The notes under the pieces were generated by a model, which did not search any database, was not told the DNA's origin, and saw only the letters and a program-made list of their open reading frames with translations. From a virus (taxonomy: Duplodnaviria; Caudoviricetes): a stretch of 24,507 bases of DNA. A program made the position numbers and the translations under genes. The stretch lies in the IMG/VR virus record IMGVR_UViG_3300032332_000065, positions 1-24,507 of that record. One strand, given 5' to 3'. Of the stretch, positions 21,631-24,507 are shown piece after piece (position 1 is the stretch's first letter; every line of letters starts with the position of its first letter).

Positions 21631-21851
21631 CACTTTTTTAGTAAGGAAAACCCTAGGTATATCCTAAAAAGATATAAATTGCACACAAACTGTCATATAT
21701 CAAACTGTACAGAAAAATGTACAACACCCCTTTTTGTACCCAATTACACCCATAAATTTTGCGCCCTATAAATGAATCATTAATGGACTTATGGATTTAT
21801 TTGTAAACCATTTTGTACAAAACCCGACAATTTGTAACAAATATGTTAATA

Positions 21852-21940
21852 AAGGCTGTATTTGGCAGTTACCATCAATGGGCGAGAAAGCCGCAAAATT
21901 ACCCAATTACTGCATCCTACAATGACGGCTTAACGCCCTA
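21852..21940 (-). ncRNA. Candidate pseudoknotted structured RNA
   Basis: Minus-strand nested stems AGGGC/GCCUU, UGUA/UACA, GCAGU/ACUGC and UGGG/CCCA, plus AAGCCGU pairing with GCGGCUU in the terminal loop. G-U pairs favour the minus strand. Confidence 0.55.
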
Positions 21941-21948
21941 AAGAAGTT

Positions 21949-21992
21949 GGGGTACTTGCTTCTTTACGCTTTCCCCCGTTCCCGTGAAGGAA
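21949..21992 (-). other. Two RNA hairpins after nuclease stop, one with loop E-type internal loop
   Basis: Minus strand UUCC-UUCACG-GGAA, then GGGG-GAAA-GC...GC-AAGUA-CCCC. Confidence 0.5.
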
Positions 21993-22754
21993 TTAAAGAT
22001 TGTTTTTGATCTGATAGACCCGTAACAAGTGTTGGAAGCACTCCCAGCCATTTTGTAGCTTGGATTCTTCCACTTCTACCAATTTTACTTGGTTTGTAGT
22101 GCCGTTGACAAATAGGATAGCACAGCGCGCGTTGGGCAAGTTTAGGCCTTCGCGATAGCTCGCTAGTTGTAACTCATGCTCAAAATATACCTCAACTTTG
22201 TCTAAATCGGTATCCTTGGTTTTGAAGTCAACAATGTAGCCTGTACCCTGACCGTTGACAGGTTTAGCCATCAAATCGCATTTGCCACCAAACCCTAGCG
22301 GATGCCCAAAAGACTTCTCTGCAAGCCAAGGTTGATCCCCAAAATGATGCTTTAGTACATCATCTATCGCATCAAGGTAGGCTGGCTTGACAGGCATATA
22401 CACCTGTTCAAAATAACTTTCAATAATGGCGTGGATAGCAGTACCGCGTTCCGCAGCTTCCCTACCAGTAGCACGGCTGTCTTGCATAACGCGCTTTAGC
22501 CACTCCTGTTCGAATTCGTTTACTTCTCTAGGCAAAGTCAAGGCTGCAAGTAAGACCTGTTGCAACTTCCAGTTAGTAAGGCCTGCCTTGTCCAAGACAT
22601 TGATGATTGTAGTAACTGACGGTAAAAGACCTTCTTTTCGCGCATCACGCAAGGTTGTAGGCCTTTCCCCAGTTTTACCAATGGTTGTATAGGCAGGTGT
22701 TCCCTGACGGGTATACCAATGGCCACTTTCTTGTTGTTTGTCTTTAATTATCAT
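21993..22754 (-). CDS. PD-(D/E)XK exonuclease (RecB/Cas4-like superfamily)
   Basis: LPSVTTI, RGTAIH, E, GKCDL, IVDFKT and QLASY motifs. Confidence 0.88.
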   Translation of the reverse strand: MIIKDKQQESGHWYTRQGTPAYTTIGKTGERPTTLRDARKEGLLPSVTTIINVLDKAGLTNWKLQQVLLAALTLPREVNEFEQEWLKRVMQDSRATGREAAERGTAIHAIIESYFEQVYMPVKPAYLDAIDDVLKHHFGDQPWLAEKSFGHPLGFGGKCDLMAKPVNGQGTGYIVDFKTKDTDLDKVEVYFEHELQLASYREGLNLPNARCAILFVNGTTNQVKLVEVEESKLQNGWECFQHLLRVYQIKNNL

Positions 22755-23368
22755 CAGAAGGGGATATCCTTCAAATCGTCATCTTCTAACTTTGGCGCAT
22801 CAGCATCACGCTGTTTTTGGCCACGCCATTCACTACTTTCGGTAATCTTTTCTTTGTAGTATTTTGGCAACGCATCGTAATCTTCTTGCTTGTAGTCCTG
22901 TAACCAAAAGATTTTAGTAGGGTTAATGCCTTCAGGCTGGGCCGCGCGCAAGGCTGACGGTACAGGGCTAATACCGCTGATGTTAGCGTACTTGCCATCT
23001 TCTGAATGAGTGATGTTGACCATACAAAACTTACCCAACAAGTTCTTGAGGTCAAAGTTTTTTCTGTCCTCTGCACTCATTTTTTTGTTAGACCAGCTTT
23101 CAAGGTCTTGACGCAATCGCGCTTGATCCCCAAGGCTTACGGTATAGCGTTTAGACACAATTAAAGGCTTCTTATCGTCTGTTTGTAATGGAAGTCCTGC
23201 ATCGTCATCGCCATGCAACTCCCAAGTCAGCACAACTTTGTGCATAATCTTGGATTCGCCAGCCCATTCTACGGATTGGTGGCCCAAATCAATAATGCTA
23301 TACAAGCGCGCCATATGAAGCCCTGCTGGGGCTATTTTAAATTCTTTACTGTTATCTGAAATAATCAT
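22754..23368 (-). CDS. Probable ssDNA-binding protein (NGO0469-like phage family)
   Basis: PAG-x-H-x-AR-x-x-x-IIDLG-x-Q, LR-x-DLESW and FDL-x-x-LLGK-x-C core. Acidic SSB-type tail DDDLKDIPF. Confidence 0.7.
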   Translation of the reverse strand: MIISDNSKEFKIAPAGLHMARLYSIIDLGHQSVEWAGESKIMHKVVLTWELHGDDDAGLPLQTDDKKPLIVSKRYTVSLGDQARLRQDLESWSNKKMSAEDRKNFDLKNLLGKFCMVNITHSEDGKYANISGISPVPSALRAAQPEGINPTKIFWLQDYKQEDYDALPKYYKEKITESSEWRGQKQRDADAPKLEDDDLKDIPF

Positions 23369-23568
23369 TATGCGTTCCTAAAAATATTTGAAAAGTCATC
23401 AAAGACTGCTTTTAATACTGGGTTTGGTCTTATTGGGGCAGGTAAACCACAGGCGTAACGAAGGTCACCGATTTCATCGGCAGTTAGCATCATTCCGTCA
23501 TCGAGGTCTTTAAAGATGCGTTCCAAATGTTCTTGGAAGCTATTGAAGTCTTGATCTTGCTCACTCAT
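23368..23568 (-). CDS. Small hypothetical early protein
   Basis: Start reassigned to ATG 23568 behind AGGAG SD. First gene of the leftward operon, TAATG-coupled to the SSB-like gene. Confidence 0.7.
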   Translation of the reverse strand: MSEQDQDFNSFQEHLERIFKDLDDGMMLTADEIGDLRYACGLPAPIRPNPVLKAVFDDFSNIFRNA

Positions 23569-23607
23569 ACGAGTTCTCCTAATTAACACGGCACATACCG
23601 TATTTAG

Positions 23608-23636
23608 ATATTAAGCCAACTTAAATAAGATTGCAA
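23608..23636 (-). promoter_or_regulatory. Leftward early promoter with operator
   Basis: Minus strand TTGCAA-17 nt-TAATAT. Dyad TTAAG-CCAA-CTTAA at 23611-23624. Confidence 0.65.
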
Positions 23637-23644
23637 TAGATTAT

Positions 23645-23679
23645 TTGAAATTTGTTGTAAAAATGTTAAGATAGCTTAT
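23645..23679 (+). promoter_or_regulatory. Rightward promoter for cro-like gene with operator
   Basis: TTGAAA-16 nt-TAAGAT with TGn extension. Near-perfect dyad TTAAG-ATAG-CTTAT at 23666-23679 overlapping the ATG. Confidence 0.65.
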
Positions 23680-23908
23680 GGAAAAAATTACAGCAAGAGC
23701 AATGATTAAGTTGTTGGGCGGGCCTACAAAGGTAGCAAACCTAGTAGGCGTAAGCGTTCCAGCGGTGTCTATGTGGCAAAACGGGATAATTCCTTACGAT
23801 AAGTTGGTGATCCTTGCCGCAACCCTAGAAAAGGAAAGTGCTGGTCTTATCACTAGAAAAGAGCTTTTTCCGCTTTCTTACAAAATGATATGGCCTGAAT
23901 TAAGATGA
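23678..23908 (+). CDS. Cro-like helix-turn-helix regulator (YdaS/Cro family)
   Basis: IKLLGGPTKVANLVGVSVPAVSMW HTH and IWPEL C-terminus. Divergent from the recombination operon. Confidence 0.88.
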   Translation: MEKITARAMIKLLGGPTKVANLVGVSVPAVSMWQNGIIPYDKLVILAATLEKESAGLITRKELFPLSYKMIWPELR

Positions 23909-23920
23909 TGTATACTATAG

Positions 23921-24282
23921 CTGTCAAGGGTGGAACTTTGGCAGAATAAGACCTCATTCACATGGGTTGGTTTCGACACTTGTTTTATTAAAGTCAAAAT
24001 TCCACCCCCAGCCCAGCTGAATGAGGTTTTTCTTTGGGCGCGACCTAGCCCGTTCTCAAGCGTGTTGCAACGGTAAAGGCTGTAAATACCCCTAGAAACT
24101 ACTAGCGCGAATGCGCCTTCCCTATCCGTTATTGCTTGGATAGTCAGAAGAACCGTACTGTACGGATAGACCGATGATGTGATAAAGACAGACCTAGGCA
24201 CGACAAAGACATCGAAGCAATAATTTGAAAAAGAACTCAACAAGACTGACAAGCTATTCCTCATAGTAGGGATAGCTATGTC
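23921..24282 (+). ncRNA. Candidate large structured non-coding RNA/cis-element
   Basis: No credible ORF. TATACT at 23911-23916 just upstream. Hairpin 23921-23944, 23-bp stem 23948-23970/24008-24030, loop-loop complement GGGTGGAA/TTCCACCC, and further stems up to hairpin 24248-24282. Confidence 0.6.
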
Positions 24283-24327
24283 CTGAATCTAACAATCCTG
24301 ACGAAAAAACAACAGTTAATAAAAATA

Positions 24328-24356
24328 TTTACTCTTAAGTTTACTTAACATATACT
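24328..24356 (+). promoter_or_regulatory. Rightward promoter with operator in spacer
   Basis: TTTACT-17 nt-TATACT. Perfect dyad TTAAG-TTTA-CTTAA at 24335-24348. Confidence 0.65.
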
Positions 24357-24384
24357 TCAATTAGTTTAACTTTTGGAGTACAAA

Positions 24385-24507
24385 ATGACTTGGAATTTAC
24401 GATTAGTAAATATGAGTAATTCTTACGAAGATTACTTTGAAATTCGCGAAGTTTATTACGACACAATGGGTAAACCTATTGGCCACAGTAAAGCTGCTAT
24501 TGGTGGG
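24385..24507 (+). CDS. Hypothetical phage protein, 3' truncated (not in ORF track)
   Basis: GGAG SD at 24375-24378. MTWNLRLV...YFEIREVYYDTMGKP is open to the window end. Confidence 0.75.
   Translation, partial: MTWNLRLVNMSNSYEDYFEIREVYYDTMGKPIGHSKAAIGG

Follow-up and report, generated by a model that had tools for sequence, protein, structure and literature searches.

The gene-free region that follows cro in this phage genome holds a conserved, folded, non-coding cassette with two supported pseudoknots, which represents a new double-pseudoknot RNA family without an entry in Rfam. The original prediction had placed here an undescribed structured RNA, possibly serving as a replication origin in place of an initiator protein. 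The RNA itself is supported by covariation in 39 homologs and by the lack of an Rfam family. For its function, an RNA-based origin is the best reading of the comparative evidence, although the phages keep the C-terminal domain of an initiator and a primase can coexist with the RNA.

The window, i.e. the whole stretch of 24 507 nucleotides that was analysed, is a partial (71%) record of a tailed phage from freshwater. Portal-to-lysis genes are followed by a short leftward operon with an exonuclease gene (21993-22754) and the adjoining gene of a probable single-strand DNA binding protein (22754-23368, - strand), for which PHROG 862 and 298 are the matches; the probable binding protein is 32% identical to a phage RIO-1 protein annotated as putative ssDNA-binding. 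Next come a cro-like repressor gene (23678-23908, + strand; PHROG 35, E = 2.9e-10), which served as the anchor for gathering relatives and of which the homolog in locus L061 matches Pfam P22_Cro, and then the element, termed class A. Among bacterial assemblies, the closest homolog of a neighbouring gene (75%) belongs to a Betaproteobacteria MAG; its remaining matches come from bins of taxa unrelated to one another, probably through mis-binning of phage contigs. The left operon contains a second gene-free A/T-rich stretch (21660-21980) with repeated TGTACA words, and a hairpin-like region lies near 21885-22046, homologs of which are present in contigs from RNA runs. Palindromes resembling TTAAG-n4-CTTAA occur at 23610-23680 and 24335-24354 and recur in many relatives at divergent promoters and after the element; they are candidate Cro operators.

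Fold and conservation of the element

The class A element spans positions 24045-24302 of the + strand. A credible open reading frame had been judged to be absent from this region, and this holds across the homologs: of 147 insertions and deletions relative to the window, 146 have lengths that would shift a reading frame, and none of 39 homologs keeps 80 codons open in a + frame, which together rule out a decayed ORF. A 128-codon ORF on the - strand was likewise rejected, being without a PHROG match and having a - frame of 80 codons open in only two of the 39 homologs.

The + strand of the region folds better than shuffled sequences (z = -2.42, with two of 200 shuffles as good), the - strand does not (z = -0.16), and eight homologs have mean z values of -1.95 and -0.7 on the two strands, respectively. 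Folding energy alone is modest evidence and homologs were therefore collected via cro (the best 80 of 246 relatives), by DNA patterns and via a divergent neighbour gene. Removal of duplicates and of one chance match (L293, where the pattern fell inside a gene) left 65 distinct elements, 46 of subtype A1, to which the window belongs, and 19 of subtype A2. Of 80 metagenome loci to which a covariance model was applied, 36 gave no match and were set aside. The 29 class A elements among the best 80 of the 246 cro relatives are 84-94% identical to that of the window. A covariance model built on A1 detects the divergent subtype A2 at 57-83 bits and has no match among the other slot classes tested, class C included.

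The structure comprises 51 base pairs in ten helices. In 39 A1 sequences chosen from the 46, 98.5% of the pairs are formed compared with 93.5% after shuffling, and 15 pairs show two-sided changes compared with 6.7, a number reached in none of 500 shuffles; the structure was derived from the same alignment on which it was counted, which favours it. Slid alignments gave 31-42% paired. Structural covariation, which had been put forward as a check on the RNA, is thus present. One-sided changes mostly yield G-U pairs on the + strand, which points to the RNA of this strand.

All 65 elements retain the complementarity of helix P1 (24050-54 with 24069-73), which comes in three sequence versions, and of pseudoknot PK2 (24091-95 with 24194-98), which comes in five. 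Two-sided changes affect two of three pairs in both hairpin P4 (24106-15) and helix P3 (24117-19 with 24148-50), and four of six in hairpin P5 (24122-43). The loop of P5 (24130-36) pairs with 24216-22 to form pseudoknot PK1, in which 273 of 273 cells are paired. This long-range contact had been proposed from the start, and it has one two-sided pair in the 39 homologs, with both strands changing together in subtype A2. Hairpin P6 (24153-65) and helix P7 (24172-76 with 24210-14) are supported by pair counts, and helix P8 (24179-81 with 24199-201) is invariant. The terminal hairpin P9 (24252-24277) lacks a U-tract, as had been noted; 349 of its 351 cells are paired, and one pair changes on both sides (in seven sequences) and three on one side. 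P1, PK2 and two repeats that flank the terminal hairpin come in addition to the pairings first listed. The two pseudoknots, together with many invariant unpaired bases, suggest a tertiary fold.

The original prediction named each motif of the region at its correct place and saw among them mutually exclusive folds, which are mostly not conserved. The local pairing of CUAUCC with GGAUAG stands, with two-sided changes in four of six pairs in the 39 homologs; taken as a 7 bp helix it keeps all its pairs in only 23 of 39, largely owing to an outer pair that breaks in 13, and its inner pairs covary. Its proposed competitor, CUAUCCGU with ACGGAUAG, is not supported: it is fully paired in 21 of 39, and the 3' strand stays fixed while CUAUCC varies. 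AAGGC and GCCUU are paired in only nine of 39, and CUU covaries instead with AAG at 24148-50. The CUAG strand, read at first as a local hairpin, pairs long-range with CUAGG at 24194-98 (PK2). The GCGC hairpin and the CGAUG/CAUCG pairing are upheld by two-sided changes in two of three and two of five pairs, respectively. The dyad CCGTAC-T-GTACGG amounts to no more than a 4 bp hairpin that changes on one side only, and GGGC/GCCC is where it was placed but occurs only behind the leader family of the window. One possible alternative involves ACGG at 24070-73, which could also pair with 24080-83 (156 of 156 cells paired, nearly invariant). The element looks like one conserved fold with this one possible alternative; strands that covary in an alternative pairing, as in a predicted switch, are found in the leader (23920-24035) and for the most part not in the element itself.

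Nothing in the window reaches an Rfam gathering cut-off, and the matches found at E up to 10 are at chance level. A blastn search of INPHARED phages gave no match. A literature search, which covered the supplements of two motif surveys in part, found no description of it, and short words of the element are absent from four supplementary files of PMC10690425. Small shares of the element occur in 24 RNA runs; contigs over it were obtained in four RNA runs at low depth, with the flanking genes covered too, and strand and level are not readable from such contigs.

The slot after cro

In the slot that the element occupies, cro or the cargo genes inserted behind it are followed by a -10-like site, a leader of about 115-130 nt that contains a terminator-like hairpin, a single element free of genes, a tract rich in A/T and some small genes. 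Of the best 80 of the 246 cro relatives, 77 carry one and no more than one of four elements (class A in 29, B in 40, C in seven and D in one), and the other three end within 663 bases of cro. Counted from the leader side, 114 of 120 leader matches had 200 bases downstream, which hold class B in 39 cases, A in 20, D in 19, C in 18, A2 in nine, E in four and other sequences in five. An initiator-like gene follows the leader in none of these 114, the three distinct 'other' sequences being judged by eye. The slot is obligate and swappable and is common to at least four unrelated elements besides class A.

Class B, the commonest filler, is about 240 nt long with many covarying pairs (L001:10374-10613 and 57 distinct relatives); the loci that were scanned gave no Rfam match at E 1. 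Class C is the Rfam motif Betaproteobacteria-1 (RF02932, 101-107 bits). Its RNA runs about 70-80 nt past the end of the Rfam model (L526, L543, L530 and others) and often lies directly beside helicase, primase or ParB-like genes; searches of 151 + 151 bacterial genomes gave one match each, both in phage-like contigs. Class D is almost invariant (96-100%) across dozens of phages (L076:4564-4753), and L451 and L500 have the slot filled by two further elements that remain unclassified. The class E filler (L174:1954-2110 and L200) is rich in T, bears G7-TA-G7 on the transcribed-sense strand and is followed by a gene that we take to be HNH-like from its motif. Its G-tract is reminiscent of the one at OriH of mitochondria. 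R-loop formation is promoted when a transcript is rich in G (PMC4412123, partial text).

The predicted promoter of leader and RNA is the -10-like hexamer TATACT (23911-23916, + strand). It is kept in homologs, often as TG-n-TATACT, and stays with the cassette when cargo genes insert after cro; the promoter consensus scan does not list it. PAPS-reductase-like and DUF5672 cargo genes lie between cro and the cassette promoter in L028:10275-11548, L016 and L011, where promoter, leader and element are unseparated.

Inverted repeats I2 and I6, the fold and the leaders of homologs suggest that the leader (23920-24035, + strand) is an attenuator switch. It consists of a 5' hairpin, a long terminator-like hairpin with a U-tract and an alternative pairing of 23928-23940 with 23995-24007, and its strands change together, judged by eye in 18 listed leaders that include the window. 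Leader families and element classes combine freely. At least three families were seen, highly variable in sequence, in which 5' segments stay complementary to the loop or interior of the terminator hairpin (L007, L068, L078, L158), and such variable leaders could act as specificity or incompatibility switches. The U-tract is absent from the leader of L279. A second lineage of class A loci has a leader of about 110 nt with a long stem, inner hairpins and no U-tract (L251, L291, L256, L288), the first bases of which could pair with the conserved start of the element.

Downstream of the element, the tract 24303-24372 is 81% A/T and by its composition is a candidate unwinding element. The consensus scan places a promoter-like site for the next genes inside it (24328-24356) and finds no promoter on the - strand in 23915-24507, where it marks two terminator-like sites of the - strand (24117 and 24165). 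In all five complete genomes for which it was computed, GC skew tracks gene direction and is uninformative on the origin.

The shortened initiator and its neighbourhoods

A stand-alone gene for a protein of about 125 amino acids lies 0.8-2.6 kb after cro in 66 of the best 80 of the 246 cro relatives. In those 66 loci the frame is open for no more than 21 codons ahead of the conserved domain; the remaining 14 loci extend no further than 2187 bases past cro. The protein matches only positions 174-262 of the initiator/primosomal PHROGs 270, 9474 and 9327 (E from 1e-13 to 6e-9) and is the C-terminal domain of an initiator kept as a separate gene. N-terminal Pfam domains (PF13730 or PF14297) are present in two of five longer homologs. 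Of 69 homologs from bacterial assemblies, 60 are extended at the N-terminus by at least 129 residues. The loci of these 60 and of one intermediate form gave no match to the class A model, and leader and element accompany all six stand-alone forms from the same assemblies. Two further short forms and the intermediate form, checked for class A only, gave no class A match.

The class A phages are common and 33-36 kb in size. No helicase, primase, polymerase, integrase or full initiator was found in three complete class A genomes (138 ORFs of at least 65 aa searched in Pfam, 66 of them in PHROGs), and neither DnaB_C nor HTH_36 exceeded the cut-off (0 of 5 each); small or unannotated proteins could hide an origin-binding factor. 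A conventional initiator elsewhere in the genome, which the original prediction had named as evidence against the origin idea, was not found among these ORFs, but its C-terminal domain is kept. In the complete genome MW202674 the short gene occurs together with a class B-like element. The SSB-like gene is also present in MW202573, which encodes a 245-aa initiator and DnaB and carries no element. A full initiator did not turn up in the slot of any close relative, and the contrast rests on distant phages and MW202573.

Among 114 class A loci examined for context, the short gene is present in 69 and absent from the vicinity in 16, while 29 end too early to tell; 15 of the 16 are assigned to the second lineage because of their different leader. 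Three apparent long initiators beside class A proved to be upstream-start artefacts of 42-54 residues. In the second lineage the class A RNA precedes a ParB-like gene or its remnant and then a helicase, and a primase is encoded in all three records tested. The anticorrelation with primase genes that the original prediction envisaged therefore fails, and the co-occurrence suggests that the element may open an origin and not itself prime. Class C agrees with this. The short gene is found in 34 of 80 loci, 17 are beside a helicase or primase, six have only cro and 23 are without a match to four probes, among them two with a primase-helicase, several with a ParB-like gene and one before terminase genes. 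With a primase in three of three class A records and a helicase or primase beside 17 of 80 class C elements, a primer role is not required. The tie of the element is to replication modules and to the absence of the full-length form of the initiator, not to the absence of a primase.

The fold predicted for the short initiator has a pLDDT of 82.5. Foldseek gave no match at E 0.001, and the best VIA-align scores were to unrelated helical pieces (Z 6.1), with SPP1 G39P at Z 4.3. There is no solved homolog by profile, no NCBIfam family and no Pfam match, and the Atlas leads are all under 0.9 (Phg_2220_C 0.88, T4 gp59 N 0.84, DnaB_2 0.81, DnaT 0.80). On these leads and the PHROG names, the protein may be a loader.

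In-step repeats and the proposed origin

Two direct repeats flank the last hairpin. R1 (24233-24250, + strand) is the predicted guide in the RNA, and R2 (24285-24302, + strand) is the predicted target, the template strand of which would pair with R1. The repeats change in step, in parallel and not complementarily, at a spacing of 52-60 bases with no fixed phase. Among the 46 A1 elements, nine variant states are identical in both copies and five are not. The 14 distinct R1/R2 pairs, which are related to one another, have 11.64 of 12 positions in common compared with 10.03 when shuffled (0 of 5000), and in subtype A2 one repeat position agrees in 19 of 19 sequences across three letters. Class C has a different fold and the same repeat-hairpin-repeat layout beyond the 3' end of the Rfam model. 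Here, 86 distinct pairs (110 parsed of 120 loci) have a common word of 6.38 bases, compared with 4.09 across phages and 3.5 as reverse complement. In-step repeats were also looked for in class B and were not convincing. Pairing of RNA with the template strand predicts just this: one segment in the RNA and another, further downstream in the DNA, that have to stay identical.

These repeats, taken with the fold, a slot that is obligate, the replication genes nearby and an initiator reduced in length, lead us to favour, by a modest degree and from sequence comparison, a transcription-activated, RNA-guided R-loop origin gated by the leader. Host RNA polymerase would start at the TATACT promoter, and the leader would choose between termination and read-through. 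The RNA would then fold, hairpin P9 bringing R1 beside the just-transcribed DNA at R2. R1 would pair with the template strand and the following RNA would stay as an R-loop into the A/T-rich tract. Finally, the initiator C-terminal domain of about 125 aa (in the lineage of the window) or the phage helicase and primase (in the second lineage) would load the replisome onto the strand that has been displaced, with or without the RNA end as primer. All of these steps are proposed, from transcription and attenuation to the R-loop, the loading of a helicase and any priming.

The element follows cro directly, is preceded by a leader that resembles a terminator and has early genes downstream, a position that would suit a regulatory RNA of the early right operon, for instance a trans-acting small RNA or a factor-independent antiterminator like put of phage HK022; the link to replication would then be one of operon position only, and Rfam does type class C as sRNA. 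A separate promoter-like site after the element and the occupation of the slot by an unfolded G/T-rich tract speak against this reading, which also leaves the in-step direct repeats unexplained, and we consider it unlikely.

Direct repeats beside an A/T-rich tract are typical of iteron origins. The repeats here do adjoin such a tract and a short initiator domain is kept, so the origin could be in the same place with R1 and R2 acting as double-stranded sites for a phage or host protein, the fold being secondary or acting as single-stranded DNA. The variable spacing without a fixed phase and the short initiator, which is 126/127 identical whether the phage carries a class A or a class C element, argue against iterons read by a protein. 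So do the 62 different repeat words of class C and the G-U bias of one-sided changes on the + strand. Moreover, features of lambdoid iterons are lacking: the short initiator has no N-terminal DNA-binding part, and only two-copy repeat families are found in 23500-24507. Repeats bound by a protein thus seem quite unlikely.

R1 and R2 might also be alternative RNA strands for the same RNA site, in strand exchange, oligomer formation or catalysis. The tertiary fold suggested above would fit, and part of R1 can pair with part of R2 in the commonest version. In addition, the 23-nt hairpin at 24179-24201 has a loop similar to model positions 72-94 of EGFOA (RF02955), an RNA that forms a 3' strand-exchanged dimer (bioRxiv 10.64898/2026.07.01.735769, partial text); the match scores 17.3 bits against a cut-off of 37.7, and the rest of the 108-position model is unaligned. 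The version in the window breaks the R1-R2 pairing and the copies are still identical, and a scan of the alignment columns showed no third strand that would complement the letters which vary in the repeats; this reading is very unlikely. Highly improbable, finally, is that slippage or gene conversion keeps the repeats alike with no pairing role and that the RNA has some other job: these phages recombine freely and five of 14 variant states are not common to both copies, but certain differences between the copies stay fixed within the repeats even as the letters beside them change in both, and the same layout recurs in the different fold of class C.

Returning to the RNA-guided origin, a wider form of this proposal is that tailed freshwater phages have replaced the origin-recognition half of the initiator by interchangeable RNA cassettes, in which two or more unrelated folds each bear a guide word, free to vary, that locates its copy in the DNA of the phage itself and opens the origin, variable leader switches setting incompatibility. 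We put this forward tentatively.

In the partial texts of PMC3035462 and PMC6380287, ColE1 and the MRB plasmids are the replicons named as starting from RNA instead of a Rep protein. In ColE1, a stretch of RNA pairs with the template DNA and nucleates a persistent hybrid (PMC4412123, partial text), to which the in-step R1/R2 repeat would be analogous. A further likeness to ColE1 RNA II would lie in a Rep-independent start from a folded transcript with control at the 5' end of that transcript (PMC4412123, PMC3035462 and PMC6380287, in the parts available), and the three complete class A genomes, among their ORFs of at least 65 aa, encode no origin-binding Rep or initiator beyond the C-terminal domain. 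There is, however, no sequence likeness to ColE1 in Rfam or in the plasmid collection apart from one 28-base chance match. The pairing word of the element is of mixed sequence and free to vary, whereas that of ColE1 is rG/dC in the text available. The consensus scan showed no antisense promoter here, the leader resembling a sense attenuator, and the host of the element is a tailed phage that keeps an initiator C-terminal domain.

The MRB replicons of Vibrionaceae likewise have an ORF-free, RNA-dependent origin in which a variable regulatory RNA sets incompatibility, but they use two complementary RNAs and reside in plasmids (PMC3035462, partial text). A second RNA is not indicated here, and 72,556 plasmids gave no match beyond the one chance match mentioned above. 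The ARRPOF, GEBRO and PAGEV plasmid motifs are structured, 223-349 nt long and tied to replication regions, and ARRPOF lies in a region that supports replication without a rep gene; these motifs occur in plasmids of other phyla or classes (PMC5737381, partial text) and have no Rfam match to the element.

Betaproteobacteria-1 shares with the element the slot in sister phages, the neighbours and the repeat-hairpin-repeat layout, but differs in fold and sequence, positions 23400-24507 having no match to it even at E 10 (cut-off 49.4 bits). Phage T4 encodes its own replisome, which the lineage of the window does not appear to do. At T4 oriF and oriG a promoter and a downstream unwinding element lead to an RNA-DNA hybrid (PMC4412123), an arrangement to which the -10-like site and the A/T-rich tract here may correspond, but the part of that description available has no folded guide RNA. 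If the proposed reading holds, the element works like ColE1 or MRB and is not a member of either, with no homology, no rG/dC contact and no antisense RNA indicated. By score it is neither EGFOA nor Betaproteobacteria-1, and it is probably a new variant of RNA-initiated replication.

The finding adds a double-pseudoknot RNA family and ties an orphan Rfam motif, Betaproteobacteria-1, to replication, which, if true, gives that RNA a function. Phages of 33-36 kb that show no recognisable replication start are offered one by the cassette, and a repeat, a hairpin and a second repeat changing in step provide a search signature for other orphan phage RNAs. If the proposal is true, phages possess a programmable, RNA-guided origin system, the freely changeable guide word of which would serve the building of orthogonal replicons.
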